From a virus: a stretch of DNA of 64,000 nucleotides. The stretch lies in the IMG/VR virus record IMGVR_UViG_3300033074_002003; one strand, 5' to 3'. The notes beneath the pieces were generated by a model. That model ran no database searches. It worked only from the letters and a program-made list of their open reading frames with translations, and had not been told where the DNA came from. This document shows, piece by piece, positions 30,134 through 59,039 of the stretch (positions within the stretch are counted from its first letter, which is position 1; each line of letters begins with the position of its first letter). Both the position numbers and the translations under genes were made by a program.

Positions 30134-30134
30134 T

Positions 30135-33072: not shown

Positions 33073-33075
33073 GTG

Positions 33076-33982: not shown

Positions 33983-34118
33983 GTGGTGTATGTCGCGCGA
34001 ACTTTTGTCTGCTGAATGCACGGTGAACAAGAATAGCCCGGGAAGGGGAGGCGCGAACGAGACGAGCCTCTCTGTCCACGAGTACGTCCCACCCGTGCGC
34101 CACAGGTAGCGATTGAGA

Positions 34119-34541: not shown

Positions 34542-34543
34542 AG

Positions 34544-37053: not shown

Positions 37054-37277
37054 CGCACGATCTCGTGCTCGAGGATGTCAGAGATTTGCATCTCACGGCT
37101 AACGTAGTGCTGTTCGGGATCGTCGGTCCAGAAGTACATGGTCCAGAAGTACGTTGTTGTGAAGCGTGGATTACCCGTGATGAACGGTCTCACCACGACG
37201 GCGATGCCCCTCTTCCTGATCACGAGGTCGCCGAGCCTGACGTACGGTATCAGCTTATCGGGCACCCTCGGTATCAT
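37050..37277 (-). CDS. array-family small protein (YFWT subgroup)
   Basis: YVRLGDLVIRKRGIAVVV...HEIVR. Confidence 0.55.
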   Translation of the reverse strand: MIPRVPDKLIPYVRLGDLVIRKRGIAVVVRPFITGNPRFTTTYFWTMYFWTDDPEQHYVSREMQISDILEHEIVR

Positions 37278-37501
37278 CGAACGACGCTGCTTTCCATGAT
37301 GCAGATCATGTTCATCGCCGAAATCGTACCCAATCTAGAATCGGTACGGTCGGTCCAGAGGTACATCACAGTGAAAAATCCGGGGGTGTCCTTGTGCTGT
37401 TCACGACCGATTTCGACCATGACAGCGAGTCCGGCAGCACGACACACGAGGTCGCCCGTCCTCACGAAGCGAGCGACGCGAACAGAGGGCCACGCGCTCA
37501 T
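37274..37501 (-). CDS. array-family small protein (YLWT subgroup)
   Basis: FVRTGDLVCRAAGLAVMV...SSVVR. Confidence 0.55.
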   Translation of the reverse strand: MSAWPSVRVARFVRTGDLVCRAAGLAVMVEIGREQHKDTPGFFTVMYLWTDRTDSRLGTISAMNMICIMESSVVR

Positions 37502-37698
37502 CTGACAATCGCCTCTCCACTGAGCATGATGTTTTTAATCTGTGTGGACGAACTGCGCCCAGAGGGCAGGAACACTACAGCGTTTGAGCGTTTGAGTGAC
37601 TCTTCGCCCCCGATGACGATGGCGAGGAAGTCGAATCGCACGACGAGATCGCCCACGAAGAACTGAACCCGTCCGTCATTGATATCGAACTTGATCAC
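37498..37698 (-). CDS. array-family small protein (GTG start)
   Basis: FFVGDLVVRFDFLAIVIG...EAIVR. Confidence 0.5.
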   Translation of the reverse strand: MIKFDINDGRVQFFVGDLVVRFDFLAIVIGGEESLKRSNAVVFLPSGRSSSTQIKNIMLSGEAIVR

Positions 37699-37913
37699 CT
37701 GACGATCCCCTTCAGCGCGCGCTGTGGGCCATACGCAGAAATGAACTCTGTCGAGAGGGACTCCCTCTCGTCCCACAAACCGCAGGCTCGCGTGGTGTTC
37801 CCGCTAACCGGTCCGATTACGACAGCGATACCATCTACTCTGATGACGAGGTCGCCAACGAACGTACGGTGGGTTGCGCCCGTGGGAATGTGCCACTTTT
37901 CTGCTCGCGTCAT
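37695..37913 (-). CDS. array-family small protein
   Basis: RTFVGDLVIRVDGIAVVIG...KGIVR; ATGA coupling. Confidence 0.55.
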   Translation of the reverse strand: MTRAEKWHIPTGATHRTFVGDLVIRVDGIAVVIGPVSGNTTRACGLWDERESLSTEFISAYGPQRALKGIVR

Positions 37914-38212
37914 CGCCATATTTGGTGCTTCTTCGTGAAGCGTGATTCCAAAATATAATGCAGCGGGAGGACCCTAGCACTGCGCAGGATGCAGTAGACC
38001 GGCACGTACCCTAGCGCACAGAATATAGTGAGGTCGCCGATGACCACACACACCGCTTCGTCACTGATCACAAGGTCACCCACCCTGAAATACTTCTGTG
38101 AACATCTCACCGAATGAGCCTCTCGTGCGCGCCCACAGTCCCCTTCACCTCGACGTCTCGAGTCACCCGTCATGAGAAGAGATCCGATTTCCGAGGACAA
38201 AATTTCGCTCAT
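37910..38212 (-). CDS. array-family small protein
   Basis: YFRVGDLVISDEAVCVVIG...HQIWR; ATG 4 nt after upstream stop. Confidence 0.5.
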   Translation of the reverse strand: MSEILSSEIGSLLMTGDSRRRGEGDCGRAREAHSVRCSQKYFRVGDLVISDEAVCVVIGDLTIFCALGYVPVYCILRSARVLPLHYILESRFTKKHQIWR

Positions 38213-38216
38213 CGGA

Positions 38217-38468
38217 TCACCTCCACACCCGGTCACCATCCACGAGCGTCTCATACGTGGTCGTTCTCGCCCAACGTGGGAGGTCCGCGCCGCCCGTGCG
38301 TTCGCAGAATCCCGTCGCGAGGCACAGCTCTAGGGGAATTTCTCTCCCACCCGTATCGTACGGGTCCCACTTCGTCTTAAAGTGACCCAAAATCACGTAG
38401 ACGTACGTTCGAGACACGAGGAGATCGCCGATCCGGAGACGGGTTCCTGTCTCGCGAATCTCGCTCAT
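38217..38468 (-). CDS. array-family small protein
   Basis: LRIGDLLVSRTYVYVILG...DRVWR. Confidence 0.55.
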   Translation of the reverse strand: MSEIRETGTRLRIGDLLVSRTYVYVILGHFKTKWDPYDTGGREIPLELCLATGFCERTGGADLPRWARTTTYETLVDGDRVWR

Positions 38469-38677
38469 CGGATCACGTATTCCTCTCCCATGACTCGGGA
38501 TGAGATGCTAAAGGTCAACCACAGCCAGCTTCCGTCACCGCGAGTGTAGAATCCAACCATCTCCGCGTTACCTCTTTCTGGATCCACACCGCACGTGATT
38601 AGAGTGCAGTTACGCCCAGCGAGGAGGTCTCCTACGCGTAAGTGCTGTGCGTTGTACTGATGTGTATCGGCGCTCAT
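38465..38677 (-). CDS. array-family small protein
   Basis: LRVGDLLAGRNCTLITCG...EYVIR. Confidence 0.55.
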   Translation of the reverse strand: MSADTHQYNAQHLRVGDLLAGRNCTLITCGVDPERGNAEMVGFYTRGDGSWLWLTFSISSRVMGEEYVIR

Positions 38678-38895
38678 CGCACGAAATCCTCTCCGCGACA
38701 GAGATAGTTTCCGATCTCTACTTTCCCGTAGTCTCGACTGTACCACCAACCGTAACAGACATTGAGGATCGTGTCGTTAGTGATCCCGCCCGTACCGCGC
38801 CGACCCGGTCGCACGACAACGCAAAGCGAGTCGGTGCGAATTATCAGGTCGCCCACACGATATTTCTCTACCCAGCGTCCCGAGGCGTCGCTCAC
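38674..38895 (-). CDS. array-family small protein (GTG start)
   Basis: YRVGDLIIRTDSLCVVV...EDFVR. Confidence 0.5.
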   Translation of the reverse strand: MSDASGRWVEKYRVGDLIIRTDSLCVVVRPGRRGTGGITNDTILNVCYGWWYSRDYGKVEIGNYLCRGEDFVR

Positions 38896-39107
38896 CTGAT
38901 CACCAAGTCTGGCCGCGCAAGCGCCTCTGCCCAGGTTGTCGTCTCCCACTCAACGTGTCTGTCGTTCCACCGATAGAATCCCGTTGTCATCACGACGGGC
39001 ACTTCATTTTCTTTTCCCTCGTCGCGTTCTGTGATCACGTAAATGTAGCGGAATGAGACGAGAAGGTCGCCGACGCGAAACTTACCAATAGTACCAGCAG
39101 TGCTCAC
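38892..39107 (-). CDS. array-family small protein (GTG start)
   Basis: FRVGDLLVSFRYIYVI...DLVIR. Confidence 0.5.
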   Translation of the reverse strand: MSTAGTIGKFRVGDLLVSFRYIYVITERDEGKENEVPVVMTTGFYRWNDRHVEWETTTWAEALARPDLVIR

Positions 39108-39292
39108 GAGATCACCTTCCAATCCTCCGAACGGTGCGCGGGCAATCTGATTCCCAACCAGCGACAATTATTGCTAACGTAGTTGAATCCCACCACAGAA
39201 CAGTAGGCATCGAAGGGCTCGTGTTCAACAACGACGTAGGTCGAAAGCCTGGTCACGACGAGGTCTCCGATCTGGAGTGTCATCGAGTTCAT
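39104..39292 (-). CDS. array-family small protein
   Basis: LQIGDLVVTRLSTYVVV...WKVIS. Confidence 0.6.
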   Translation of the reverse strand: MNSMTLQIGDLVVTRLSTYVVVEHEPFDAYCSVVGFNYVSNNCRWLGIRLPAHRSEDWKVIS

Positions 39293-39483
39293 CTCACCCT
39301 CTTCACGCCCGCGCGGGGAAAATCCAGCGAGGAAACCCAGTCTTCGCGCGGTACTCTAGTCCATCCCGGTGTTGTCCTGATCGCGGGCCAAATGCCATCA
39401 ACGTCGCGACCAACGATCACATAGAGGTCAAACCTGAATATGATCAGGTCTCCGACTCGCAGGCGTCGCTCCGCTTCACTCAT
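39289..39483 (-). CDS. array-family small protein
   Basis: LRVGDLIIFRFDLYVIVG...VKRVR. Confidence 0.6.
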   Translation of the reverse strand: MSEAERRLRVGDLIIFRFDLYVIVGRDVDGIWPAIRTTPGWTRVPREDWVSSLDFPRAGVKRVR

Positions 39484-39671
39484 CTTACCACCCGCGCGCT
39501 CGCATCACGGATGTCGAAGGCGCCCACGTCGAGGCCCACCCACTCGCACGAACCGCTCCTGCGATAGTAAAATCCCTTCGCTGTCCATATTCCCTTCTTC
39601 TCGCTGACGATCACGTAGAGAACGAGCGGAGTCACCACGAGGTCACCGATCCTGTAGCTGAAGCCGTTCAC
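39480..39671 (-). CDS. array-family small protein
   Basis: YRIGDLVVTPLVLYVIV...ARVVR. Confidence 0.6.
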   Translation of the reverse strand: MNGFSYRIGDLVVTPLVLYVIVSEKKGIWTAKGFYYRRSGSCEWVGLDVGAFDIRDASARVVR

Positions 39672-39871
39672 GAGATCGCCCTTCTTGCATCTGTCGCCCG
39701 CGCGCCGAGCCGAGTGCGGACCCAGTCCCAGCTCCCTCTCCAGTAGAATGACCCGACCACCGTGCAGAAGTCGTCACCGGGTCTGTGCTCGATTACAACG
39801 TAGGTTCCAGACTTCGATATGAGCAGGTCGCCGAATTTCACTTCGCGACCTGTGGACAAAATCTCGCTCAC
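39668..39871 (-). CDS. array-family small protein (GTG start)
   Basis: VKFGDLLISKSGTYVVI...RRAIS. Confidence 0.5.
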   Translation of the reverse strand: MSEILSTGREVKFGDLLISKSGTYVVIEHRPGDDFCTVVGSFYWRGSWDWVRTRLGARATDARRAIS

Positions 39872-40077
39872 CTGAACACTTTCCTTTCGCGCCGCGGCGC
39901 AGTGTGGTACCCATTGATCCACTCCCACCCGCTGCGAGTTGTGTAAAGCCCGATCGCCGTTCCGCAATCCGCGCGATAGTCTTCGCACCACTCACAGAAA
40001 ATCGCCGTCTCGTATTTAGAGACGATCAGGTCTCCGACGCGGAACGTAAATCCGGGTGACAATTTCTCTGCGCTCAT
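39868..40077 (-). CDS. array-family small protein (KLSP N-term)
   Basis: MSAEKLSPGFTFRVGDLIVSKYETAIF...RKVFR. Confidence 0.55.
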   Translation of the reverse strand: MSAEKLSPGFTFRVGDLIVSKYETAIFCEWCEDYRADCGTAIGLYTTRSGWEWINGYHTAPRRERKVFR

Positions 40078-40286
40078 CGGATCACCCGATCTGTTCTCAG
40101 CTGCTCCCTCGCGACATCGAGCATCCTGAATATCCAACTTCCGTACCTCGTCGAATACGCGAATCCTACTCCGCGTAAGCACCACGGATTTTCCTCTGAC
40201 TTTCCCACGATCACCCACGTTCCGACGTGGGTGATGAGGAGGTCACCCACCCTGAACCGCGCGGGGGACAAATTCTCATCGCTCAC
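40074..40286 (-). CDS. array-family small protein (ENLSP N-term; GTG start)
   Basis: VSDENLSPARFRVGDLLITHVGTWVIVG...DRVIR. Confidence 0.5.
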   Translation of the reverse strand: MSDENLSPARFRVGDLLITHVGTWVIVGKSEENPWCLRGVGFAYSTRYGSWIFRMLDVAREQLRTDRVIR

Positions 40287-40519
40287 GAGATCACTCTCGT
40301 CTCCGGACCCAGCCACCGCCAGACGGATATCACATCGTGGTTGTTCCACAACGATCTCCCCGTGCTCACGTTCCAGAAGAGCCCGGTCCCAAACCATTTA
40401 TTCTCGAGATCGGGTGTGGCGTCAGGATTAGCCAAGCGACCCACGATCACGTAAAGGAAAGAACTGTAGCTTGAACTGTAGACGATGAGGTCGCCCACTC
40501 GAAGTTCGACAGCGCTCAT
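40283..40519 (-). CDS. array-family small protein
   Basis: MSAVELRVGDLIVYSSSYSSFLYVIVG...TRVIS. Confidence 0.55.
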   Translation of the reverse strand: MSAVELRVGDLIVYSSSYSSFLYVIVGRLANPDATPDLENKWFGTGLFWNVSTGRSLWNNHDVISVWRWLGPETRVIS

Positions 40520-40746
40520 CTCACCACCCGTTCCCTCACGTACGTCGACGTGTGTACTCGAGTGCTCTCCCAGCACACGTCCTTAGCATTCCAGAAATAG
40601 AATCCCGTCGCGTCCCAGTACGATCGCGAAGTATCGGAGCTCCGACCCACGATCACATGGATACAGTATTTTCGCACGAGCAGGTCGCCGATTTTGAAGT
40701 TGTATGCATCCTCGTGGAGGATGGCGGGTGACAAATTCTCTCTCAT
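40516..40746 (-). CDS. array-family small protein (ENLSP N-term)
   Basis: MRENLSPAILHEDAYNFKIGDLLVRKY...ERVVR. Confidence 0.55.
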   Translation of the reverse strand: MRENLSPAILHEDAYNFKIGDLLVRKYCIHVIVGRSSDTSRSYWDATGFYFWNAKDVCWESTRVHTSTYVRERVVR

Positions 40747-40937
40747 CTGTAAATCTCGTGGTTCCACCCCGCCCACGTGTGAGCTGATGGCGCCCACACC
40801 GTGGGAGACGAAATTACAGGCGAACAGTAGACGAACCCAGAACACTCTGGCCACTCGTTCTCTCTTAACCCCACGATCACGTAGACGTAATCACGAGAGA
40901 CAAGGAGATCGCCGAGGCGAACGATCGGTTCGCTCAC
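40743..40937 (-). CDS. array-family small protein
   Basis: IVRLGDLLVSRDYVYVIVG...HEIYR. Confidence 0.6.
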   Translation of the reverse strand: MSEPIVRLGDLLVSRDYVYVIVGLRENEWPECSGFVYCSPVISSPTVWAPSAHTWAGWNHEIYR

Positions 40938-41134
40938 CTCACGACCCTCCCGCTAGCGTACTCACGGTACCATCCCGGAAAGTCCGAGAACCACCACCAC
41001 ACGTCGTTAGCCCAGTAGAACCCACTCATGTAGACATTCCCTTCGTGGGGCTCTTTGCTGTGCGGTCCGATCACGACCGCGGTCTCCTCGCCCATCACCA
41101 CGAGGTCCCCGACGCGGAATCTGCTCTCGCTCAC
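40934..41134 (-). CDS. array-family small protein (Trp-rich C-term GFYWANDVWWW; GTG start)
   Basis: FRVGDLVVMGEETAVVIG...GRVVR. Confidence 0.5.
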   Translation of the reverse strand: MSESRFRVGDLVVMGEETAVVIGPHSKEPHEGNVYMSGFYWANDVWWWFSDFPGWYREYASGRVVR

Positions 41135-41334
41135 GAGATCACCTCGTGGTCCCACGATGAGTGAACAACATTGTTTTCAAGCAGCGCACACCCGCCGCCC
41201 TTCACATAGACGATCCCAAATCCAACCGGCCACTCTCCCTCCTGTTTCACGATCACGTAGACATAGCTCTCCGAGATCGCGAGGTCTCCCAACCTGAGGC
41301 GACCGCGAGCCGCGCCCGAATCGGTGTCTCTCAC
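41131..41334 (-). CDS. array-family small protein (GTG start)
   Basis: LRLGDLAISESYVYVIV...HEVIS. Confidence 0.5.
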   Translation of the reverse strand: MRDTDSGAARGRLRLGDLAISESYVYVIVKQEGEWPVGFGIVYVKGGGCALLENNVVHSSWDHEVIS

Positions 41335-41543
41335 GAGATCACCCTCACGATCGCCGGACTGCTGGAGTGAATGCTCTTGTCGACCATCGACCGCGCGCTG
41401 CTCGGGTACCAGAAGCTGAACCCGCGAACGCGGCGTCGCGATTCGTCCGACCACGCGACGACAACATACAACCCGTACTCGCTGATGACTAGGTCACCGA
41501 TCCGGAGGCCGAACCGCCGGGGTGACAAATTCTCATCGCTCAT
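41331..41543 (-). CDS. array-family small protein (ENLSP N-term)
   Basis: MSDENLSPRRFGLRIGDLVISEYGLYVVV...VRVIS. Confidence 0.6.
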   Translation of the reverse strand: MSDENLSPRRFGLRIGDLVISEYGLYVVVAWSDESRRRVRGFSFWYPSSARSMVDKSIHSSSPAIVRVIS

Positions 41544-41740
41544 CGCACGACCCTTCCGCTAGCGATCTCTAGGTCCCACACCGAGTGGCTCGCGTACCAC
41601 CACCACTCGCCGTTAGCCCAGTAGAACCCGCTTATCGAGACACACTCTGCCTCCAGTTCTTCGCCCGAGATTCTGGTCACAACTGCGATCTCGTCGTGCA
41701 GGGCCACGAGGTCGCCCAGGCGGAACCTATTCTCGTTCAC
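41540..41740 (-). CDS. array-family small protein (Trp-rich C-term GFYWANGEWWW, near-duplicate of 40934..41134; GTG start)
   Basis: FRLGDLVALHDEIAVV...GRVVR. Confidence 0.5.
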   Translation of the reverse strand: MNENRFRLGDLVALHDEIAVVTRISGEELEAECVSISGFYWANGEWWWYASHSVWDLEIASGRVVR

Positions 41741-41961
41741 CGGATCACCCGCCTGTCCGTATACTGCAGGTCGTATGTCATCCAGTCGATGTTCACCCAC
41801 GCGCGCTCGCCCCTCAGATAATAGAGCCCGGCCGCCGGCCACACCCTCCGTACTCTGTGGCCGGTGATCACGTAGAGGTAGCGGTTCGTCACGATGAGGT
41901 CTCCCATCCTGTAGCTGAAATCGTCCGCGCAATGTGCGGGTGACAAATTCTCATCGCTCAC
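41737..41961 (-). CDS. array-family small protein (ENLSP N-term)
   Basis: MSDENLSPAHCADDFSYRMGDLIVTNRYLYVI...RRVIR. Confidence 0.6.
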   Translation of the reverse strand: MSDENLSPAHCADDFSYRMGDLIVTNRYLYVITGHRVRRVWPAAGLYYLRGERAWVNIDWMTYDLQYTDRRVIR

Positions 41962-42173
41962 GAGATCACCCTCACGATCGCCGAACTCCCTGGGTGGATG
42001 GCGTGTGTGGTCACCCGCTTCGCTCTGCTGGGTATCACGCCGTTACCGAAGAAGATCCCCAACCCAATAGCGTGTTCGTTCTCTTCCCCGAAAATCACGA
42101 CGTACGACCCGCGTCTCGTGATCACGAGATCACCGACACAGAGGCGACGAGCGGGTGACAAATTCTCTCTCAT
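41958..42173 (-). CDS. array-family small protein (ENLSP N-term)
   Basis: MRENLSPARRLCVGDLVITRRGSYVVI...VRVIS. Confidence 0.6.
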   Translation of the reverse strand: MRENLSPARRLCVGDLVITRRGSYVVIFGEENEHAIGLGIFFGNGVIPSRAKRVTTHAIHPGSSAIVRVIS

Positions 42174-42367
42174 CTCACGATCCTATGGTTCCAGTCGGCG
42201 CGCACCCAACTAACGGTCAGCCAGACAGGAAGCCCGCCCTCTTCTCCCCAGACGAACCCGCAGCATATGGCATGGGTGCTCTCGCCCCACACATCTCCCA
42301 CAACAACGTAGAGGTAACCCATCGAGACGATCAGGTCGCCCACACATATATGACGCTTCTCGCTCAC
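42170..42367 (-). CDS. array-family small protein (GTG start verified as GTGA overlap)
   Basis: VSEKRHICVGDLIVSMGYLYVVVG...HRIVR. Confidence 0.5.
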   Translation of the reverse strand: MSEKRHICVGDLIVSMGYLYVVVGDVWGESTHAICCGFVWGEEGGLPVWLTVSWVRADWNHRIVR

Positions 42368-42600
42368 GAGATCACCCGATCTTCGGGATACAGGTTCTTC
42401 TGGTCGAGCACCGCCCGGGCGAACTCCCAGCGACCCGTGTGGAGGACCCACATGAATCCCATCGCACCGTTGCACGTGAGATTCCACTCGGAGTATCCTA
42501 GGAACACCCACGTCCCGCGCACTGTGACGATCAGGTCGCCGACCCGCAGCGTAGAATTCCGCACTGGGACTCTGCACAATTCGGCCGTCCCGTCACTCAC
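42364..42600 (-). CDS. array-family small protein (GTG start)
   Basis: LRVGDLIVTVRGTWVFLG...DRVIS. Confidence 0.5.
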   Translation of the reverse strand: MSDGTAELCRVPVRNSTLRVGDLIVTVRGTWVFLGYSEWNLTCNGAMGFMWVLHTGRWEFARAVLDQKNLYPEDRVIS

Positions 42601-42863
42601 GCCCACCGGAATACCCTGCTTCCCCGACACGCATCAAGCCCGAGAATGTGAAATGACGTCCACTTCCAACACCCGTACCAGAGGTAGAACCCGCGCCCGA
42701 GTCCCGTATCGGTCACAACCAGGATCTCACACTCGTTGACGAGGAGGTCGCCGACACGGACACCGGTCTCGCCCGCGAGAATTGTCCCACGTGCACCGAA
42801 TAATTCGGCCTCCGCGCTCTCGTGAGGGGGTTGGGGATACTTGTCCATGGCTTGCAGACTCAC
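42597..42863 (-). CDS. array-family small protein, first gene downstream of the regulatory gap (ends RVFRWA)
   Basis: VRVGDLLVNECEILVV; GTG or internal ATG start. Confidence 0.45.
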   Translation of the reverse strand: MSLQAMDKYPQPPHESAEAELFGARGTILAGETGVRVGDLLVNECEILVVTDTGLGRGFYLWYGCWKWTSFHILGLDACRGSRVFRWA

Positions 42864-42870
42864 GAGAGTG

Positions 42871-42925
42871 GAATTGGGTGAGGGAATTTGAGCGAGGGTG
42901 ACGGGAGGGGGAATTGAGGGTGGGT
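42871..42925 (-). repeat. three tandem about 14-bp G-rich direct repeats (GGGAATT(T)GAG...GG) immediately upstream of 42597..42863
   Basis: ggaattgggtgagg / ggaatttgagcgagg / ggaattgagggtggg. Confidence 0.45.
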
Positions 42926-43032
42926 CGCATTTGCCACTCTATCACACACTGCAAGGAGTTGCACAGTCCCCTCTGTGCGAGAGAAACATCAGCGCTCCTG
43001 ATTCTGCACCCAAGAAAACTCACGGTGGCCTC

Positions 43033-43060
43033 CGAAAAATACCCGATCTCGGGTTTTTCG
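43033..43060. terminator. bidirectional intrinsic terminator-like hairpin (AAAAAT-ACCCGATCTCGGGT-TTTTT)
   Basis: GC stem CCCGA/TCGGG flanked by A-run and T-run; lies in 640-bp non-coding gap downstream of 43505..43702. Confidence 0.45.
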
Positions 43061-43242
43061 ACACACAGTGGGCCCTCTTTCGTACTCGCAGTCGTGTTTT
43101 TCGGTGCCCAACTCCACTCAGTCGATGTTGACCGCAGATTGTCGCTTGAGTGTGCGCAGTCGATCTCGATTCGACAGAGAAATCTCGGTGGGCGAGGCGC
43201 AACGGGTCGACCCGTTCACTTCCGATTGTCGTGAGTCTGCGC

Positions 43243-43431
43243 CTCAGTTGGGTCTCCCCGAGCAGGGGGGTAGCACCGGTGTCGAGACATGTGTTCTGTC
43301 CCTGCACATCACGAGTGGGAGTGGGCCCGCGGAGAGGGCGGGACGACCCGAGATTTTGCGCCTCGAGGCCCGTGAAATCTGCGGTGTGCACGCCTGCGCT
43401 CACCTTGGGTCTCCCCGAGCAGGGGTAGAAC
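43243..43431. repeat. two copies of a roughly 24-bp direct repeat TTGGGTCTCCCCGAGCAGGGG(G)TAG about 165 bp apart (each contains hairpin CCCC-GAGCA-GGGG)
   Basis: copies at about 43243-43266 and 43408-43431 in non-coding gap. Confidence 0.5.
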
Positions 43432-43504
43432 GCGGGTCGTCGGGAAGCGGGACGCGCCTCAGGAAGTCGAAAGCCACGAGGGTTGTCGATGCGATGGGGA
43501 CGCG

Positions 43505-43702
43505 TCATTGGGCGATCACCTCGAGCATTGTCGTGTGTACCACCAGCAGTCCTTCCAACCGCGGGTCTGAATCGTATACTTTGACGAGGCGGTGCGTGCG
43601 GCCGTCGAAGTGGAACAGGTGATTGTCGATCACGACAGCGAGTGTATGACTGCTCCACGTGAGATCGCACAGGTCACCGATCCTGAACTCGCGAGCGATC
43701 AT
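43505..43702 (-). CDS. array-family small protein (ends LEVIAQ)
   Basis: MIAREFRIGDLCDLTWSSHTLAVVI. Confidence 0.5.
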   Translation of the reverse strand: MIAREFRIGDLCDLTWSSHTLAVVIDNHLFHFDGRTHRLVKVYDSDPRLEGLLVVHTTMLEVIAQ

Positions 43703-43911
43703 CGTCCCACCAGAACCCTAATAAGGAGACCTGACGTGCAGTTGTCAAAGTATGCGGCGTGAGGTCCGGCCCAAAATGCTGTAACAACCGCGCGACTCGA
43801 GAAAAAGTCATCTTTGCTGTGGTGGACGACGACTCCAACCTCGCGCGTAGGTTCGAAATAGATGAGGTCACCGATGTGGCACTCACCAGCTCGGATTCGC
43901 GGGTGACTCAT
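43699..43911 (-). CDS. array-family small protein
   Basis: MSHPRIRAGECHIGDLIYFEPTREVGVVV...; ATGA coupling both sides. Confidence 0.5.
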   Translation of the reverse strand: MSHPRIRAGECHIGDLIYFEPTREVGVVVHHSKDDFFSSRAVVTAFWAGPHAAYFDNCTSGLLIRVLVGR

Positions 43912-44102
43912 CTTCCGCGCAGCTCCACGGGGAGCGTCCACAATCCCGCACCGCGCCTGTCGAACAGGATGCTGTCGAGGTTAACCCAAACACACTCACT
44001 CCGCATGCTGTCTTTTCGAATGACGATACCGAGCATGCTAAAGTACGTGAAGAGGTCTCCCACTCGGAGTTCGTGGATACTCATCGATGTGGGTGCCATC
44101 AC
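43908..44102 (-). CDS. array-family small protein
   Basis: LRVGDLFTYFSMLGIVI. Confidence 0.5.
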   Translation of the reverse strand: MMAPTSMSIHELRVGDLFTYFSMLGIVIRKDSMRSECVWVNLDSILFDRRGAGLWTLPVELRGR

Positions 44103-44323
44103 CTGATCACCCGCGTGATCTCGTCGCTGTAGATCAGTTGTCGGTTGTTCACGTAGTCACCCATCACGAAGTAGCACCCGATCGCTTCGACGGAGTCATA
44201 TGCTGCTGTCACAACAGCGAGCCCGTGGCGCGGCGTCCTCGCGCTCGCCGGCGACTGGGCAGTGATGAAGGTGACGCTAGGGACTGTGCGCGTGAGGATG
44301 AGGTCTCCCACGCGAGGCTTCAC
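44099..44323 (-). CDS. array-family small protein (GTG start)
   Basis: VKPRVGDLILTRTVPSV...TRVIR; GTGA overlap. Confidence 0.5.
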   Translation of the reverse strand: MKPRVGDLILTRTVPSVTFITAQSPASARTPRHGLAVVTAAYDSVEAIGCYFVMGDYVNNRQLIYSDEITRVIR

Positions 44324-44532
44324 GCGATCCTCGCCATCTCGTCGTGTTCGAAGCACAGGTCGGTCTCCCAGCGATGTCGCGGGTGTATCCAGAGAACCGC
44401 ACGGCTCCCGTCACCTTTGAATTCTGATTTGGGTGCGAGGACGATGCCGAGAGCACTGCTGAACACAGCAATGTGCTCCTCGACGATGACGAGATCTCCT
44501 ACTCTCACGTCTTCGGGACGACTGTACCTCAT
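44320..44532 (-). CDS. array-family small protein (ends MARIA)
   Basis: VRVGDLVIVEEHIAVFSSALGIVL. Confidence 0.55.
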   Translation of the reverse strand: MRYSRPEDVRVGDLVIVEEHIAVFSSALGIVLAPKSEFKGDGSRAVLWIHPRHRWETDLCFEHDEMARIA

Positions 44533-46490: not shown

Positions 46491-46796
46491 CTAGCGAGGC
46501 GGGGGACGTTCTACGCCAAACTCGGCGAGGAAGCGATCACGGGAGCACGTGAAGAGACCCGCGATGAAGCGGTTCCTCTCGTCCACGGGCAGCTGTGCAG
46601 CCCCTCGTTCGATGTCGGGACGCTGTTTGTACGCGAGCCTGATCACCTCGTTCACCTGGTCCCACGTGTAACCGTGGAAGCGCGCGGCGGACGACTCGAC
46701 TTCTGCCCGTCGTGCACGGTACTCCTCGTGCACTCGCTTGACACCGAGTGCCGCAAGGAACCCAAACCACACACGCGCGGTCGTAGAAATCCTCAT
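46491..46796 (-). CDS. hypothetical protein
   Basis: ORF track 101 aa. Confidence 0.4.
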   Translation of the reverse strand: MRISTTARVWFGFLAALGVKRVHEEYRARRAEVESSAARFHGYTWDQVNEVIRLAYKQRPDIERGAAQLPVDERNRFIAGLFTCSRDRFLAEFGVERPPPR

Positions 46797-46877
46797 ATAG
46801 AGCTACCTTACCACAGCCTGAGAACGCAAGCACGCGGGTGTGGAGAGGCCGTTAACCCCACACCCGCGTGCAACTTG

Positions 46878-47702
46878 TCACTCGCCGTCTTCGGGATCGG
46901 GCACGCCGTCCGTGAGGCAGTACTTCGAGTGCACGCCCGAGGCGGACATGCCGATGACCCACTCGCGGTCGCTCGGCCCGTATCGGTTCTTGTCGCACTC
47001 GATGATGCGCTCGCCGTACGTCTCCGACTTCTTCTTCTTGTCGATGTAGGCGTGGATGTGCACGTCGAGGGCGTGCTTGATGATGTTCTTGCCCGCGAAC
47101 GTGCCGTCCTTGGTGACCTGTCCGATGAGGATGCCCACGCCGTAGGTCGCCTTCACCCACCCGAGGAGCTGCTCCGCGACGCGGACCGGCGTGTTGCCGT
47201 TGGTCCCGCCGTTTGTGTAGAACCCATCGTCGAGCGCCTGGATGGAATCGCCGATGAACACGGGCTTCTTACCCTTGTTCGAGGGGAGACTCATCAGGTA
47301 CCGCATGTGTTCGAGCGCCTTCGGCATGAGTCGGTCGCGGCCGATGATGAACCCGTGCTTCAGCTTCAGGCGCTCCACGGTCATCTTCACCTGCTGCGCG
47401 CCCTCCTCGTTCGTGTTGTAGAGCACGAGGTAGCCTGCAGCCGTGAGGGCGTCGGCGATCTGCAACGAGATCGTCGTCTTGCCGCAGCCAGACGCACCCG
47501 AGATCAGGATGCCAGTGCCGGCGTTGAAGCCGAACCCGGCACCTGCGAGGTCGTCGATGAAGTCGATCCCCGTGCGGACCTTCACCCGCATCTCCGGCGG
47601 GACGTGGACCGCGAGGATGTTCGTGTTCCTCTTCACCTCGTCCTCGAGCTGGATGTTCATTCCACCAGCACCTGACAGCTTCGCGGGGGCAGCTTTCGCC
47701 AT
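46878..47702 (-). CDS. RecA-superfamily ATPase (RadA/Sms- or KaiC-like recombination/repair protein)
   Basis: Walker A GASGCGKTT, Walker B-like LVLYNTNEE; ATG MAKAAP with AGGAGG SD; N-terminal extension in ORF track rejected. Confidence 0.55.
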   Translation of the reverse strand: MAKAAPAKLSGAGGMNIQLEDEVKRNTNILAVHVPPEMRVKVRTGIDFIDDLAGAGFGFNAGTGILISGASGCGKTTISLQIADALTAAGYLVLYNTNEEGAQQVKMTVERLKLKHGFIIGRDRLMPKALEHMRYLMSLPSNKGKKPVFIGDSIQALDDGFYTNGGTNGNTPVRVAEQLLGWVKATYGVGILIGQVTKDGTFAGKNIIKHALDVHIHAYIDKKKKSETYGERIIECDKNRYGPSDREWVIGMSASGVHSKYCLTDGVPDPEDGE

Positions 47703-48475: not shown

Positions 48476-48775
48476 ATGGCCATCACGGACAAGCCCAAGT
48501 ACGGTTCGAAGAGCAGCCCCGATCCCGAGAAGCGCCACTTCTTCAAGTGGGCCGGCGAGAAGTCGGGCGAGGGCATCGGCACCTGCATGCACTGCGGCCT
48601 GCAGATGAAGTTCGAGGAGAACGGCGCGCGGGGCGGGAAGCACCGCGTGTACAAGAAGAAGGGCGAGCGCGCCTGGTCCGAGAAGGAGACCCAGTGCGTC
48701 GCCCGCTCGCGGTCGCTCGCCCTCGCGGCGAAGGAGCCGAAGCCCGCCAAGAAGGCGGCGAAGAAGGCCGCCTGA
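48476..48775 (+). CDS. small basic Cys/His protein (putative zinc-binding), paralog of 58764..59039
   Basis: shared H.FKW.....G.GIG.C.HC...LKF.ENG.RGGKHR.Y; Lys/Ala-rich tail. Confidence 0.55.
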   Translation: MAITDKPKYGSKSSPDPEKRHFFKWAGEKSGEGIGTCMHCGLQMKFEENGARGGKHRVYKKKGERAWSEKETQCVARSRSLALAAKEPKPAKKAAKKAA

Positions 48776-48830
48776 GACCTCGCGGAGACATCCTGAACAA
48801 CCCGTGCGGGTGACGTATAGTTATCCCCAC

Positions 48831-48915
48831 GGGTTGGATGCTCTAACGGTAGGGCAACGGGTTGTAGCCCCGTCAGACCTCCGGGTCTAAGCAGGTTCGA
48901 TTCCTGCCCAACTCA
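48831..48915 (+). tRNA. tRNA-Tyr (GTA), type II with long variable arm
   Basis: acceptor GGGTTGG/CCAACTC, anticodon loop TTGTAGC, variable stem AGACC/GGTCT, T-arm GCAGG-TTCGATT-CCTGC. Confidence 0.7.
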
Positions 48916-49036
48916 CAAAAAAAGCGGTGAACACCCGGGCTGTGCGCCATATACTATCTCTTGCGGGGTAGTGTACAGAGCACGTGCAGCCTCATAAGCT
49001 CACAGACCGAGGGGCAGCTCCCGGCGACCGCACCCA

Positions 49037-49681
49037 ATGTTGATTGTATGTGACGAGTGTGGAAAAGAATACCCTCCCAAAGGTATCGCCACACATAAAT
49101 GGCGAACTCACGGTGATGGAATTGGGTTCAAGCCAACGGGCAACAAGCGTGTGGTTTGGAATAAGGGCCTTACTAAAGACTCTGATATTCGTGTCGCTGT
49201 AGGAGCTGAAAAGCTTTCTGTCACGATGACACGACTCTGTCAAGAAGGCAAAATCAAACCACCATTGATGTCAGTAGAGCAACGACAAAAATTGTCTCAG
49301 CGGCAATCACTACATAACTCGGGCGGTAAATCACGATGGTATGAAGTCAGTGGACAAAAGGTGCAAGGACGCTGGGAACGTGATTTTGCACTAATGATGT
49401 TGAAGCTGGGCATCACATGGATCAAACCCAAGATCGGAAGAGATATTTGGCGCTACACTCGACTAGATGGCGTGATTAAATCATACACACCAGACTTCTT
49501 CTTAGAAGAACTCTCGTTGTTCATAGAGATCAAAGGTTTCTGGTGGGGTGCTGATCGCATAAAGATGAAGCTTGTTCAAGAACAATTTCCTGAACGTAAG
49601 ATAAAAATTATCGAGAGAGAGCTATATAATAAGCTCTTGCTTGCTGAAAGCAAATCTGATTTTCTTGGGATGTTAGCTTAG
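49037..49681 (+). CDS. AT-rich putative PD-(D/E)XK-type (homing) endonuclease with N-terminal Cys/His zinc-finger-like motif
   Basis: CDECGKEY...HKWRTHG; C-terminal PDFFLEELSLFIEIKG fits PD-x(n)-ExK; low GC versus flanks; 3-prime end overlaps tRNA-Phe. Confidence 0.45.
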   Translation: MLIVCDECGKEYPPKGIATHKWRTHGDGIGFKPTGNKRVVWNKGLTKDSDIRVAVGAEKLSVTMTRLCQEGKIKPPLMSVEQRQKLSQRQSLHNSGGKSRWYEVSGQKVQGRWERDFALMMLKLGITWIKPKIGRDIWRYTRLDGVIKSYTPDFFLEELSLFIEIKGFWWGADRIKMKLVQEQFPERKIKIIERELYNKLLLAESKSDFLGMLA

Positions 49682-49738
49682 ACGGTTAAGCGATCGGTTG
49701 AAACCCGGTAGTCAAGGATTCGAGCGCCTTACATCCCA
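49667..49738 (+). tRNA. tRNA-Phe (GAA)
   Basis: acceptor GGGATGT/ACATCCC, D-arm GCTT..AAGC, anticodon loop TTGAAAC. Confidence 0.8.
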
Positions 49739-49745
49739 CTAATTT

Positions 49746-49817
49746 CGCTGTGAGGTCGAGTGGTGAGACGTCCGCTTCATAAGCGGTAGGATGCGGGTTC
49801 GAGTCCCGCCACAGCGA
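49746..49817 (+). tRNA. tRNA-Met or Ile2 (CAT)
   Basis: acceptor CGCTGTG/CACAGCG, anticodon loop TTCATAA, T-arm GCGGG-TTCGAGT-CCCGC. Confidence 0.8.
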
Positions 49818-49832
49818 CGGTCCGAAAGATAC

Positions 49833-49912
49833 GCGCTCGTAGTCTAAAGGATAGGCAGCGGCTTCCTAAGCCGAGACGAAAGTCAATGTAGGTTCGAGTC
49901 CTACCGGGCGTG
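49833..49912 (+). tRNA. tRNA-like, candidate anticodon CCT (Arg) with 13-nt variable arm (GAC-GAAA-GTC)
   Basis: acceptor GCGCTCG/CGGGCGT (2 GU), T-arm GTAGG-TTCGAGT-CCTAC; D-arm weak. Confidence 0.4.
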
Positions 49913-49963
49913 CTGAGATTCGAGTGAGAGGAAGCTTCGAACCTCCCACTCGTTTTCTCTTAC

Positions 49964-50359
49964 GGGGGTGACAGGTTTCGACGGAGGAAAGGAGTCCCAC
50001 CTGCGAGCGAGCAGCAATCAGTGACGACTGCTCTGAAAGATGGCACTGACGCTTAAACGCGAACGATAACGGCACTTCTCTCGCCCTCGCGGCCTGAGCG
50101 TCCCCCGTAGCAAGAGATGAGCACTGTAGCTCTCGGGACGTCATCTACTGTGCATCTATGTGGGCGGCACCGGTCCGCTCTCAGAATTTCACGGTGTAGG
50201 AGCGTGCGGGTTTCGTTCCCCGGGCGCTCCGAAGTAGTGAGAACGAATGTGCGCCAGCAGAGGACTGTCGGACCGACGGTGATAGGTGAAATTCACATAC
50301 GCTCGTAGACGGTGAGATGAACTGACTTTCGGACGAGGGTTCGATTCCCTCCACCTCCA
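49964..50359 (+). ncRNA. ssrA: tmRNA (SsrA); tag ORF 50059..50097 encodes ANDNGTSLALAA
   Basis: 5-prime GGGGGTGACAGGTTTCGACGG, 3-prime GGACGAGGGTTCGATTCCCTCCACCTCCA with G3-U70 Ala identity pair; canonical AND...LAA tag. Confidence 0.85.
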
Positions 50360-50462
50360 CTGTAGTGAGCTCTGTGAGGAATGCAGAGAGCCCGTGACTA
50401 TCACGGTGCAACATGGTAAAGAGTTGTTAGGCGACGGTGAGTCGCGGTAACAAGGGAGCATC

Positions 50463-51668
50463 ATGGACATCCATACTTTCAAGCGTGTCGTCAAGTACCT
50501 CGAGCCGACCAAGACCTCGGACGGGAAGGTGATGAGGCCCCCGGCGATCATGATCACCGGCAGACACGGCATCGGGAAGAGCGGTGTCATGAGGCAGATC
50601 GCGGCGGAGGTCTGCGGGCTGCCCCTGATCGATAGGCGCATCGGGCAGATGTGCGAAGGCGACCTCGTGGGTCTCCAGAAGATCGACGGCGAGTTCACGA
50701 AGTTCCTCCCGGTCGAATTCATCCACCGCGCCTCCAAGGAACCGCACTTCCTCTTCTTCGACGAGGCGAACCGCGGCACGAAGGAAGTGATGCAGGTGAT
50801 GTTCCAGCTCGTCCTCGACTACGAGCTCAACGGCGTCGTGCTCCACCCCGATACCCGCATCGCCATCGCGGTGAACGAGGGGTCCCAGTACACGGTGACG
50901 CAGATGGACCCGGCCCTTCGCGACCGGTTCTTCTACGTGGAGCTCGAGCCCACGGTGGACGAGTGGATCGAGTGGGCGAAGGTGGAAGGCCTGCGCCCGG
51001 AGATCGTCTCCTACGTCACGCAGCATCCCGCGCACCTCGACACGCCCGCGGACACCAGGATCGCGGGTCGCACGCCCTCGCGCCGCGCGTGGCACATGTT
51101 CTCCGCTCCCCTCGATCGCATGATGATGCAGGACGGTTTCGCTGTCGAGAAGGACGAGTGCGTGTTCGAGCTCTTCTCGCTCGCGAGCGGGTTCCTGGGC
51201 GCCGCGGTGGCGGCCGACTTCAAGGAGTACGTGCTGGAGAACTGCAAGCGTCCCACCGCGGAAGACGTCCTGAACGACTGGCCCACCACCCGCGCCCGCC
51301 TCGCTCGCATGGGCGGCAACCCGTGGATGCACATCATCGACACCGTCTCAGACTGGGCGAAGAACGGCCGGATGACCGACGCACAGCGCGACATGTTCTG
51401 TGACATGTTCAACGAGGCGCCCGCCGAGTACCGCATGGCGCTCTGGCAGAAGATCGCGCAGATGCGCGTCGTCGAGGACGAGGGCACCCTGCACAACATC
51501 GTGCTCATCCACTCGAAAATCAAGCGGAAGCTCGTCGCCGCGATGATCGGCGAGGAGGAGGCGGAGAAGCGGTTCGCGGAGGACGAGGAGCGCTACCAGA
51601 AGTTCATGGCCGAGGAGGCCGCACGCGCCGCCGAGGCGGAGGGTGGCAATGTCGCTGCTGGAGCCTGA
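50463..51668 (+). CDS. MoxR-like AAA+ ATPase (AAA_5)
   Basis: Walker A ITGRHGIGKS, Walker B LFFDEANRG; SD AAGGGAG. Confidence 0.7.
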   Translation: MDIHTFKRVVKYLEPTKTSDGKVMRPPAIMITGRHGIGKSGVMRQIAAEVCGLPLIDRRIGQMCEGDLVGLQKIDGEFTKFLPVEFIHRASKEPHFLFFDEANRGTKEVMQVMFQLVLDYELNGVVLHPDTRIAIAVNEGSQYTVTQMDPALRDRFFYVELEPTVDEWIEWAKVEGLRPEIVSYVTQHPAHLDTPADTRIAGRTPSRRAWHMFSAPLDRMMMQDGFAVEKDECVFELFSLASGFLGAAVAADFKEYVLENCKRPTAEDVLNDWPTTRARLARMGGNPWMHIIDTVSDWAKNGRMTDAQRDMFCDMFNEAPAEYRMALWQKIAQMRVVEDEGTLHNIVLIHSKIKRKLVAAMIGEEEAEKRFAEDEERYQKFMAEEAARAAEAEGGNVAAGA

Positions 51669-53121
51669 CGTGTCACCCTCGAGCGAGGGTGATACTGTCG
51701 GGGGTATGAGCGACACCGACGACGGTGAGAAGAAGTGGTCGCCCCTCTCGAACGACGCCTTCTTCGTGAAGGGCAAGAAGATCGAGCCGGCTAACACCAC
51801 GCACGTGAGGCAGCGTCTCGACGATTACCTCGTGAAGCTGTACATCGACGAGCCCTTCTGGGCGCGGCTCTCCGCACACACCTCGAAGGTGATCACCCGT
51901 GCCATCCCGACTGCCGCTGCGACGTGGCACCAGGGCGGGTTCATCATGATGTTCAACCCCGATTTCATCGGTGGCCTCGACTCTGCCGGGAGGCGAGAAG
52001 AGGTCTACGGGGTGATCAAGCACGAGCTCTCGCACATCGGATTCGGCCACCTTGGTTCTCGGTACTACCCCGATGACATCGAGGAGCAGGTGAAGAAGAT
52101 GAACCCCGACGAGTACAGGGCGTTCGAGAGGAGGAAGAAGATCCTGCAGGCCGCGACGGACTCCGCGATCAACACCCTCCTCCTCGACGACGGGGAGATG
52201 AACGGCAAGAAGTGCGAGCTGCCTGGCGCGCCCTGGGTTCCCGGGCTCCGTCCCGGGACGCCGCTCGATCCCGTGAAGGACCCGCTGAACCCGCTCCAGG
52301 CGCTGAGGCTGGCTCTGCCTCCGTCCCCGTTCGACGAGGCCGTGATGGGTGCAGAGAAGCTCCAGTCGACGGACTACTACTACCAGCTCTATGACAAGTT
52401 CATTGCCGAGAGCGATGGCGAGGGCGGAGCCGGGACCGATTCCCACGACATGTGGGGGACGGGCTCGAAGCGGATGATCGAGGTCGAGGCGAGGCGCATC
52501 CTGAAGGACGCGGTGAAGGAGGGAGAGGGCCGCGGGTGGGGGACAGTCCCCATGAGGATGCGAACCATCCTCAGGCAGATGGTCTCCAACGAGGTGAACT
52601 GGCAGGACCGCCTGCGACAGTGGATCGGGATCAACGGCGACCCTGCGACACGCTTCAGGACCCGCAGGCGCGTCGACCGCAAGTACCCGGGTCTCTTCCC
52701 CGGCGTGAAGCGGCAGCGCGGCGTTCGCGTTGCGGTCGCGATCGATCAGAGCGCGTCTGTTCACGACGCGCTGCTCACCCGGCTCCTCGCCGTCATCGGT
52801 GGACTCTCAGAGGTCGCCACCGTCACCCTCATCCCCTTCGACACTGCGGTCGTCGAGGAGAGGATCGAGGCGCTCACTGTCGGGCAGCAGCCGTCGTTCG
52901 AGCGCGTCGCCTGCGGAGGGACGGACTTCGATTGCATCACCGGGTGGGTGAACATGCCGAAAAACGAGAACGTGTTCGATGTCCTCATCATCGCGACCGA
53001 CGGTGAAGCTGCACGCCCGCAGGCGTGTCGGATCCCGCGTGTCTGGGTCATCGGTCCGGGCTGCAAGCTCCACTTCGAAACCGACGAAGAGGTCATCCAG
53101 CTCAGCGACGAGACGGTGTAA
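51649..53121 (+). CDS. VWA-domain protein with N-terminal putative zincin-like domain (DUF2201-like), MoxR partner
   Basis: HELSHIGFGH (HExxH-like), MIDAS DQSAS in RVAVAIDQSASVHD. Confidence 0.6.
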   Translation: MSLLEPDVSPSSEGDTVGGMSDTDDGEKKWSPLSNDAFFVKGKKIEPANTTHVRQRLDDYLVKLYIDEPFWARLSAHTSKVITRAIPTAAATWHQGGFIMMFNPDFIGGLDSAGRREEVYGVIKHELSHIGFGHLGSRYYPDDIEEQVKKMNPDEYRAFERRKKILQAATDSAINTLLLDDGEMNGKKCELPGAPWVPGLRPGTPLDPVKDPLNPLQALRLALPPSPFDEAVMGAEKLQSTDYYYQLYDKFIAESDGEGGAGTDSHDMWGTGSKRMIEVEARRILKDAVKEGEGRGWGTVPMRMRTILRQMVSNEVNWQDRLRQWIGINGDPATRFRTRRRVDRKYPGLFPGVKRQRGVRVAVAIDQSASVHDALLTRLLAVIGGLSEVATVTLIPFDTAVVEERIEALTVGQQPSFERVACGGTDFDCITGWVNMPKNENVFDVLIIATDGEAARPQACRIPRVWVIGPGCKLHFETDEEVIQLSDETV

Positions 53122-58763: not shown

Positions 58764-59039
58764 ATGTCCAAGAGCACCAAGACCACTGCCAAGAAGCCCG
58801 TCACCCGCTACGGCGCGAAGACCGCCCCCGGGAAGGGTCACTCGTTCAAGTGGGAGGAGGCCCCCGGCGTCGGCATCGGGGTCTGCAGCCACTGCACCGC
58901 GAAGCTGAAGTTCGTCGAGAACGGCCCGCGCGGCGGCAAGCACCGCATGTACTGGCATGCCGGTGTCGACGGGGCGAAGGGCAAGTGGCTCCCGGAGGAG
59001 CCCAAGTGCAAGCGCGAGCCGGCCTCCAAGGCGGCCTGA
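58764..59039 (+). CDS. small basic Cys/His protein, paralog of 48476..48775
   Basis: conserved HSFKWEEAPGVGIGVCSHC...KFVENGPRGGKHRMY; leader hairpin GGTGG-GAACAA-CCACC; SD GAAGGAAGAGAG. Confidence 0.55.
   Translation: MSKSTKTTAKKPVTRYGAKTAPGKGHSFKWEEAPGVGIGVCSHCTAKLKFVENGPRGGKHRMYWHAGVDGAKGKWLPEEPKCKREPASKAA

Follow-up and report, generated by a model that had tools for sequence, protein, structure and literature searches.

Our analyses revealed that a 64,000-nucleotide (nt) stretch of viral DNA, IMG/VR record IMGVR_UViG_3300033074_002003 (the whole of which we call the window), encodes a one-piece transfer-messenger RNA (tmRNA) whose mature body, up to the discriminator A, spans positions 49964..50359 on the plus strand. 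On comparative evidence, this tmRNA is a selected, translated and long-resident phage gene, not a bacterial ssrA gene or the remnant of an attachment (att) site, because its position is fixed, its stems carry compensatory changes and the codons of its tag are patterned by selection across lineages. We consider it probable that the RNA acts as an ordinary, functional one-piece tmRNA of a large phage, working with host factors. The tmRNA is already a recognised phage accessory gene, and what is new here is the lineage, not the kind of element: large phages of a deep lineage that had not been sampled before have long kept a private tmRNA, over a divergence that reaches 41% identity in neighboring proteins and ∼50–58% in the RNA. 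Genome papers have reported phage tmRNAs for twenty years, and to our knowledge their role has never been tested.

The first-pass annotation, made from the letters alone, had called the element a tmRNA, and both programs that we used bear this out. ARAGORN placed a one-piece tmRNA with the tag ANDNGTSLALAA* at 49964..50360 (+), and Rfam cmscan gave a full-length match to RF00023 at 49964..50362, scoring 96.8 bits against a gathering threshold of 47 (E = 1.7e-36) and covering model positions 1–374 of 374 without truncation. The ARAGORN call and the end-to-end RF00023 match both place the parts in the standard gene order, not circularly permuted. The two-piece layout was not found in the window gene, and the permuted model RF04321 gave a weak, sub-threshold match in a single deep relative, L051. 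The mature body is kept in all relatives, and the tmRNA call is correct on every structural feature of RF00023 that could be tested.

All parts of the RNA lie on the plus strand. The acceptor stem pairs GGGGGUG (49964..49970, with G3 at 49966) with CACCUCC at 50352–50358 (U70 at 50356), a strand that together with the discriminator A occupies 50352..50359, and the T-arm GAGGG-UUCGAUU-CCCUC precedes it at 50335..50351. The canonical ends that had been claimed for the gene are therefore present, including the G3:U70 pair, with one part that did not hold: the gene encodes no terminal CCA, CUG being what follows the discriminator A (50359), and the same is true of every relative. CCA is also unencoded in 6 of 6 tRNA genes of the window, so that in this respect the tmRNA conforms to the genome around it. 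A helix 2 of 22 pairs replaces the anticodon arm and joins the tRNA-like domain to the ring of pseudoknots and mRNA-like sequence, its 5′ strand at 49982..50008 pairing with its 3′ strand at 50301..50331 (RNAalifold and comparison of relatives). Inside this ring, pseudoknot 1 (PK1; 50009..50049; stem 1 GAGCAG/CUGCUC, stem 2 UCAGUG/CACUGA) lies upstream of the resume codon, and the tag frame runs from the resume codon GCG through ANDNGTSLALAA to the stop UGA at 50059..50097 (gene positions 96–134), where the open reading frame (ORF) that had been read as the tag, GCG AAC GAT AAC GGC ACT TCT CTC GCC CTC GCG GCC TGA, is indeed found. Three further pseudoknots follow: PK2 at 50099..50146 (gene positions 136–183; stem 1 CGUCCC/GGGACG, stem 2 AGAUG/CAUCU), PK3 at 50162..50196 (gene positions 199–233; stem 1 GGGCGG/CCGCUC, stem 2 CACCG/CGGUG) and PK4 at 50199..50247 (gene positions 236–284; a 12-bp stem 1 and stem 2 UUCGUUC/GAACGAA). 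Between PK4 and helix 2, a segment of ∼50 nt (50248..50300) is inserted with respect to the Rfam model; it is missing from the deep relatives L049 and L051 and specific to the sub-lineage of the window. L049 aligns to the Rfam model as a compact, canonical PK1-H5-PK2-PK3-PK4, and the RNAs of the window sub-lineage are 50–57 nt longer, with the extra segment after PK4.

The position of the gene is fixed across its relatives. These were searched for with the AAA_5 ATPase gene, which starts 103 nt downstream of the tmRNA, contigs being fetched at 97, 88, 54, 45 and 41% identity, and an additional variant, L050, came from a DNA-pattern scan of metagenomes. The tmRNA lies directly upstream of the ATPase in 7 of 7 recovered lineages (ATPase identities of 100, 97, 88, 85-like, 54, 45 and 41%), and the contigs L047 and L048, which begin ∼110 nt 5′ of the ATPase, open with the last 30–32 nt of the tmRNA. 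The ATPase gene (50463–51668, +) thus marks the conserved position, and both it and the gene downstream of it, for a DUF2201 metallopeptidase/VWA-like protein (51643–53121, +), are linked to the tmRNA in the seven lineages. The tmRNAs of the relatives score 95.3–103.3 bits against RF00023, the lower value belonging to L049, which lies on a 209,695-bp contig, and the higher to L051; tmRNA-to-tmRNA identity within the clade falls to about 50–58%. The tag reads ANDNGTSRALAA in L043 and L046, ANDNGTSLALAA in L044, L045 and L050, ANDNATPLALAA in L049 and ANDNAAPLALAA in L051. The order tRNA-Tyr, tRNA-Phe, tRNA-Met, tRNA-Arg(CCU), tmRNA is retained in L049, and L051 has this core set too, with additional Met and Arg genes scattered among its members. 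Protein-based scans of IMG/VR yielded only more distant ATPase homologs, at ≤37% identity and with no tmRNA nearby, and the tmRNA–ATPase linkage therefore defines this clade. A blastn search with the tmRNA against 50,697 deposited phage records returned no match, a megablast search with 24 kb against deposited phages returned tRNA-sized matches only, and exact-pattern scans of IMG/VR returned no match to the tag region. Exact counterparts of the window proteins were confined to short Logan assemblies of two runs, which are 100% identical to the window, and the neighboring proteins are at most ∼30% identical to those of any deposited phage.

These observations bear directly on the idea that the window is host chromosome and that its tmRNA is a bacterial ssrA gene serving as the integration site beside a prophage, an idea to which we attach next to no probability. 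Islands and prophages often integrate at ssrA (PMC4131195), and 38 IMG/VR contigs (L005–L042) share the 3′ half of the tRNA-like domain as an exact match of 29 nt; many of them carry apparently host-type permuted tmRNAs, and each complete gene that ARAGORN called on them is a permuted two-piece tmRNA, with tags such as ANDAQFALAA and ANDEKFALAA. However, the gene of the window keeps its place beside a phage ATPase in relatives with 41–54% protein identity, ORFans and phage-like genes extend on both sides of it for tens of kilobases with no cellular gene among them, and its RNA is only ∼50% identical to any bacterial tmRNA that we fetched. Its CCA is unencoded, whereas most of the fetched bacterial tmRNA genes encode CCA. 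In addition, a search of the window that tolerated up to three mismatches gave no second copy of the tmRNA 3′ end (an att-like repeat), and on this result, together with the absence of cellular genes in Pfam searches, we reject a bacterial ssrA carrying a prophage att site.

The comparison of relatives also revealed selection on the structure of the RNA. RNAalifold, applied to five distinct sequences, recovered the tRNA-like domain, helix 2 and several hairpins, with compensatory changes at 24 of 94 pairs. Pairs were also counted in an explicit pseudoknotted structure written from the window sequence, with slid 3′ partners and 500 shuffles as controls. In the deep relatives (acceptor stem, helix 2, PK1 and T-arm), 15 of 46 pairs were changed on both sides, a number that none of the 500 shuffles reached and that compares with 1–5 when the partners were slid. 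In the close variants, 98.2% of cells were standard-paired against 39–50% in the slid controls, a difference that is inflated because the structure was written from the window sequence itself, which leaves the double changes unaffected. The pseudoknot domain thus folds, as the earlier reading had required, through the stems of PK1–PK4.

Individual elements show the same behavior. The G3:U70 pair is invariant in 5 of 5 distinct sequences, and acceptor pairs 4, 5 and 6 are changed on both sides in L049 and L051. Helix 2 is 100% paired in close variants and 86–93% paired in deep relatives, with six pairs double-changed. Compensatory changes affect 4 of the 5 T-stem pairs, the stem occurring as GAGGG/CCCUC, CCGGG/CCCGG, GCGAG/CUCGC, CCCAG/CUGGG and CGGGG/CCCCG, and three of its pairs are double-changed among the close variants. 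PK1 has one compensatory change per stem in the deep relatives. All substitutions in PK2 stem 1, PK2 stem 2 and PK3 stem 1 among the close variants give G:U pairs, with a C→U variant in each stem of PK2 and the explicit stems of PK3 counted in the variants. PK4 has compensated changes in both stems, U:A to C:G exchanges in stem 2 and a G:C to A:U exchange in stem 1 in L050. The equivalents of PK2–PK4 in the deep relatives are seen through the Rfam alignment only. A decaying relic, captured once from a host and now nonfunctional, could account for the ∼50-nt insertion relative to the Rfam consensus, for the low posterior probability in parts of the pseudoknot region and for the one or two mismatches in PK4 stem 1 of some variants, but such a relic is hard to reconcile with a gene that is kept in all lineages across deep divergence, with many compensatory changes, an invariant identity pair and an intact frame that accumulates synonymous changes. 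We therefore view decay as very improbable.

The tag frame carries a second signature of selection. The resume codon, the stop codon, the initial ANDN and the terminal ALAA are fixed across lineages, and five differences among the lineages are synonymous, at D3 (GAT/GAC), A5 (GCA/GCT), T6 (ACT/ACC), L10 (CTC/CTA) and A12 (GCC/GCT), replacements being confined to positions 5–8 (G/A, T/A, S/P and L/R). At position 8, both L and R occur among near-identical genomes that come from different samples. The resume codon is preceded by UAAA(C/U) in all lineages. In the tmRNA of Escherichia coli, U at −5 and A at −4 contribute to frame setting, and the window gene has both of these nucleotides ahead of its resume codon. 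As judged from codon comparison, such a pattern is that of a peptide which is produced and recognised at both of its ends, and the fixed ends together with the synonymous differences argue against a pure decoy.

A decoy or inhibitor would compete with the host tmRNA for SmpB, alanyl-tRNA synthetase (AlaRS) and stalled ribosomes, and would either block trans-translation or replace the host tag with a phage tag, altering the fate of tagged proteins. This role has been raised for the RNAs of phages DS6A (PMC4131195) and Lacusarx (PMC5648845), and it would fit both the lack of a nearby SmpB gene, by which the host pool must be drawn on, and the differences in the middle of the tag among lineages, including L or R at position 8 in near-identical genomes. 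A decoy, however, needs the tRNA-like domain alone. The DS6A RNA, which has little beyond a tRNA-like domain (TLD-only) and was proposed to be a tmRNA inhibitor (PMC4131195), is phage-borne and has a tmRNA-type tRNA-like domain like the RNA of the window, but in the latter the mRNA-like region, the resume context, the stop codon and four pseudoknots are conserved, covarying and under selection. Moreover, the ALAA degron end and the ANDN start, as in bacterial tags, look like those of a normal degradation tag and not an altered one. A position that does not change, stems that covary and a tag under selection at the level of its codons argue that this RNA, and phage tmRNAs more widely, serve as genuine tagging RNAs. 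For the first-pass suggestion that the phage may manipulate host trans-translation or tagging, the evidence favors a working, tag-adding tmRNA over an inhibitor, which we regard as distinctly unlikely. A separate observation concerns an ORF upstream (48476–48775) that encodes SLALAA through a 14-nt exact match to the tag-coding sequence; we consider the match a coincidence, as it is not conserved in the L049 ortholog and does not track the tag variant of L043.

We suggest that the RNA most likely supplements the trans-translation of the host during infection and would operate as follows. It would be transcribed with, or just after, the phage tRNA cluster, and the precursor would be trimmed by host RNase P and 3′ processing enzymes and given its CCA by a CCA-adding enzyme. 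Host AlaRS would charge it with alanine through G3:U70, and with host SmpB and EF-Tu it would enter ribosomes stalled on broken or non-stop mRNAs, where translation would resume on GCG and append ANDNGTSLALAA. The ALAA end would act as a ClpXP-type degron, and tagged products would be degraded by ClpXP-type proteases. The gain to the phage may lie in recycling ribosomes and amino acids while host and phage mRNAs are cut during infection, the tmRNA, the phage tRNAs and an RNA ligase together forming a putative translation-maintenance kit; we base this proposal on the six tRNA genes and the RNA ligase gene that the window contains. The same context would suit a counter-defence device, in which the tmRNA, with the phage tRNAs and the RNA ligase, rescues ribosomes stranded by mRNA- or tRNA-cleaving abortive-infection nucleases and in which variable tag positions 5–8, including the L/R exchange, tune recognition by host adaptors and proteases, but we think this variant unlikely.

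Several points weigh against an ordinary functional phage tmRNA. Since CCA is not encoded, it must be added enzymatically after transcription, and the discriminator of the deep relative L051 is U, not A. An 11-bp, GC-rich hairpin at 49921..49961 (+; −18.7 kcal/mol), followed by the U-rich UUUUCUCUU and ending 2 nt before the tmRNA, could end read-through from the tRNA promoters, and a separate tmRNA promoter was not identified. This hairpin may be a leader element, a terminator for the tRNA unit, possibly a leaky one, or a processing signal; strong hairpins also occur immediately 5′ of the tmRNA in L049 and L051. A tblastn search of the window with an E. coli SmpB sequence gave nothing better than E = 4, and no SmpB Pfam domain was present among 125 ORFs, which leaves the RNA dependent on the SmpB of the host or on one encoded in another part of the genome. 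We infer expression, charging and the use of SmpB, and the benefit to the phage is conjecture. Finally, no capsid, portal, terminase or tail gene was found in the 64 kb (PHROG searches of ORFs ≥80 aa and Pfam searches of ORFs ≥60 aa), so that the viral origin rests on gene content and on the relatives.

The gene content and the relatives do point to a phage. The window is 59% G+C and densely packed with small genes, ∼129 ORFs being called by third-position GC. A Pfam scan of the 125 ORFs of ≥60 aa matched 14 families and left ∼90% of the ORFs without a match. The matches include GroEL, RNA ligase, a KaiC/DnaB-like ATPase, AAA_5, DUF2201, DUF2786/DUF7168, DUF3846, Phage_endo_I, HhH-GPD and an FYVE-type zinc finger, with weak NTPase matches to nSTAND_NTPase5 and ATPase_2, and no ribosomal, metabolic, partition, replication-initiator or conjugation domain was found among these ORFs. 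PHROG searches matched phrog_1297, 1314, 421, 24725, 12487, 4301 and 5725, some of them of unknown function. The ATPase downstream of the tmRNA resembles N4 gp24-like ATPases (26–31% identity), and together with DUF2201 it is similar to the N4 gp24-like region found in N4-like phages. The earlier description of the tmRNA as phage-encoded is thus well supported, by 14 Pfam families of which none is cellular or plasmid-derived, by the PHROG matches, by the lack of an att repeat and by the tRNA–tmRNA–ATPase arrangement in all relatives, including the 210-kb contig. The window probably represents the nonstructural part of the genome of a large, unsampled tailed-phage lineage, ∼200 kb or more in size.

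We also weighed the possibility that the window derives from a large plasmid or another nonviral mobile element with translation genes. Besides the missing virion genes, this would agree with the similar translation-related genes of some large putative plasmids (PMC7162821) and with the failure to find the lineage in scans of IMG/VR. It is opposed by the matches to phage families (seven PHROGs and Phage_endo_I), by the N4-like ATPase and DUF2201 pair, by the lack of plasmid-type domains noted above, by the ∼90% of ORFs that are tiny ORFans, set in extended co-directional arrays such as those of the isolated phage Mx1, and by a homing-type endonuclease that is present or absent between close relatives. 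Taken together, we judge a nonviral source highly unlikely.

The candidate hosts of the phage are Myxococcota and high-GC Alphaproteobacteria. The genes near the tmRNA reach a third-position GC of 0.97, which suggests a high-GC host, and a large lytic phage, Mx1, can sit 13 points below its host in GC (PMC10720576). One genome per bacterial species was scanned for ANDNxxxLALAA* tags, yielding 47 loci, among which those of Alphaproteobacteria are permuted genes, with tags such as ANDNHEALALAA and ANDNVETLALAA, and those of Myxococcota are one-piece genes. Within metagenome-assembled genomes of Polyangiales (Myxococcota), the tag of L090, ANDNATPFALAA, is one residue from that of L049, and L091 and L097 have ANDNAVPFALAA. 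The Polyangiales tmRNAs are one-piece, of similar length and with a tag that begins at a comparable position, and their tag-coding stretch is 87.5% identical to that of L049 over 40 nt; they differ in whole-RNA identity, which at 48–53% is barely above that of other phyla, and in that the bacterial genes encode CCA. A permuted, alphaproteobacterial-type tag from IMG/VR, ANDNFAPLALAA, is one residue from the tag of L051. Assignment of the host by tag was therefore rejected, as the one-piece Polyangiales tags and the permuted alphaproteobacterial tags are equally close and an unrelated AT-rich lineage carries the near-identical ANDNAQPLALAA. Assignment by whole-RNA similarity was rejected as well, identity being ∼50% to every bacterial tmRNA fetched.

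The AT-rich one-piece tmRNAs were found on two IMG/VR contigs, L162 (4903–5258, −; 66 kb) and L176 (691–1047, −; 34 kb), both tagged ANDNAQPLALAA and lacking an encoded CCA. The two RNAs share 73% identity, have no relationship to the window lineage and seem to represent a separate family of phage-borne tmRNAs whose tag has converged.

Compared with known systems, the RNA is closest in plan to the bacterial one-piece SsrA (RF00023), with which it shares the full-length model match, the 7-bp acceptor stem with G3:U70, the T-arm, helix 2, PK1 before the resume codon, an Ala resume codon, a 12-residue tag ending in ALAA and three further pseudoknots. It differs in residing within a tRNA cluster of a phage-like genome, in its unencoded CCA, in having no smpB found nearby, in its ∼50% identity to any fetched SsrA RNA and in the ∼50-nt expansion after PK4 of its sub-lineage. 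Known phage tmRNAs include those of eight cluster C mycobacteriophages (Bxz1, Cali, Catera and others) and Bacillus phage G (PMC4131195), Sphingobium phage Lacusarx (PMC5648845), Sinorhizobium phage AP-J-162 (PMC11242549) and Caulobacter phage Shash (PMC13459779), and their function has not been tested experimentally (PMC4131195, PMC5648845, PMC11242549, PMC13459779). By published descriptions, on which this comparison rests, they resemble the tmRNA of the window in being borne by phages with large, tRNA-rich genomes and differ in belonging to unrelated phage lineages. The first-pass statement that such genes occur in a minority of large phages agrees with this literature (PMC4131195, PMC7162821). 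Huge metagenomic phages carry both tmRNA and SmpB (Al-Shayeb et al. 2020, PMC7162821); in them, as here, these are translation-related accessory genes, on contigs of >200 kb to which the 209,695-bp contig of L049 is similar in size, but no SmpB was detected in the window by the tblastn and Pfam searches.

The cultured Myxococcus phage Mx1 (OR576727; L198) provides a further case. Its one-piece tmRNA, at 46646–47023 within a tRNA island, scores 117.7 bits against RF00023 and is unannotated in its GenBank record, a sign that phage tmRNAs are under-annotated. The coding sequence recorded there as a "Hef-like endonuclease" (46919–47044) is doubtful, since it overlaps the tmRNA. The tag predicted by ARAGORN, VNTNVFGSQMMAAA, is unlike ANDN...LALAA, and the two RNAs share G3:U70, the T-arm GAGGGUUCGAUUCCCUC, the lack of an encoded CCA and residence in a large phage of low GC relative to its host. 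Kinship between the phages was considered and rejected; the genomes are unrelated, GroEL being the sole match at 29% identity.

The window contains six tRNA genes, four directly upstream of the tmRNA on the same strand and two more downstream. The upstream cluster (48831..49913, +; ARAGORN and Rfam) comprises tRNA-Tyr (48831–48916), tRNA-Phe (49667–49739), tRNA-Met (49746–49818) and tRNA-Arg(CCU) (49833–49913). The last of these, with a score of 45 bits, measures 81 nt and has a variable region of unusual length; its counterpart in L043 has 76 nt and scores 62 bits, and that in L049 has 73 nt. A promoter-like motif, TGAACA-N16-TATANT, has five matches in the window (1447, 12865, 27382 on the minus strand, 48794 and 48928) against 0.1 expected from shuffles, and may be the consensus of one promoter class of this genome. 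Two of these sites, reading TGAACA-N16-TATA(G/C)T, bracket tRNA-Tyr at 48794–48821 and 48928–48955 (+). Between tRNA-Tyr and tRNA-Phe lies a Phage_endo_I-like ORF (49037–49681, +) with an unusually low third-position GC of 0.42. The relatives L043 and L044, at 97% identity, have neither this ORF nor the tRNA-Met that separates tRNA-Phe from tRNA-Arg, and the ORF resembles a mobile element of the homing type that has inserted among the tRNA genes. Two paralogs, both of them small, basic proteins that contain Cys and have the motif ...GIG.C.HC...GPRGGKHR... (48476–48775 and 58764–59039, +; extreme third-position GC of 0.95–0.97), are each encoded just upstream of a tRNA gene (Tyr and Met, respectively), and L049 likewise has two copies.

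Other features of the window lie farther from the tmRNA. The RNA ligase (PF09414, 4e-28) is encoded at 16657–17502 (+) and the GroEL homolog at 24254–25906 (+), the latter being at most 48% identical to any in the phage collection, with a best match annotated groL; both are recurrent accessory genes of large phages. Composition changes in a step near 44 kb, from 55–59% GC with a third-position GC of 0.55–0.75 on the left to 62–65% GC with a third-position GC of 0.8–0.97 on the right. Small paralogs (about 65–140 aa; at least 21 copies) encoded on the minus strand at 26300–44400 share the motif R(V/I/L)GDL(V/I/L) and are visible in the DNA as repeat family D1 (GACGAGGTCACCGAC...); this very large protein family had no PHROG or Pfam matches. 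In L043 and L049, too, the locus is flanked by comparable stretches of tiny genes on the minus strand. Three tandem paralogs (233, 255 and 267 aa) at 17510–19775 on the minus strand, which match no family, have the GYGPLMYDIAMS motif in common.

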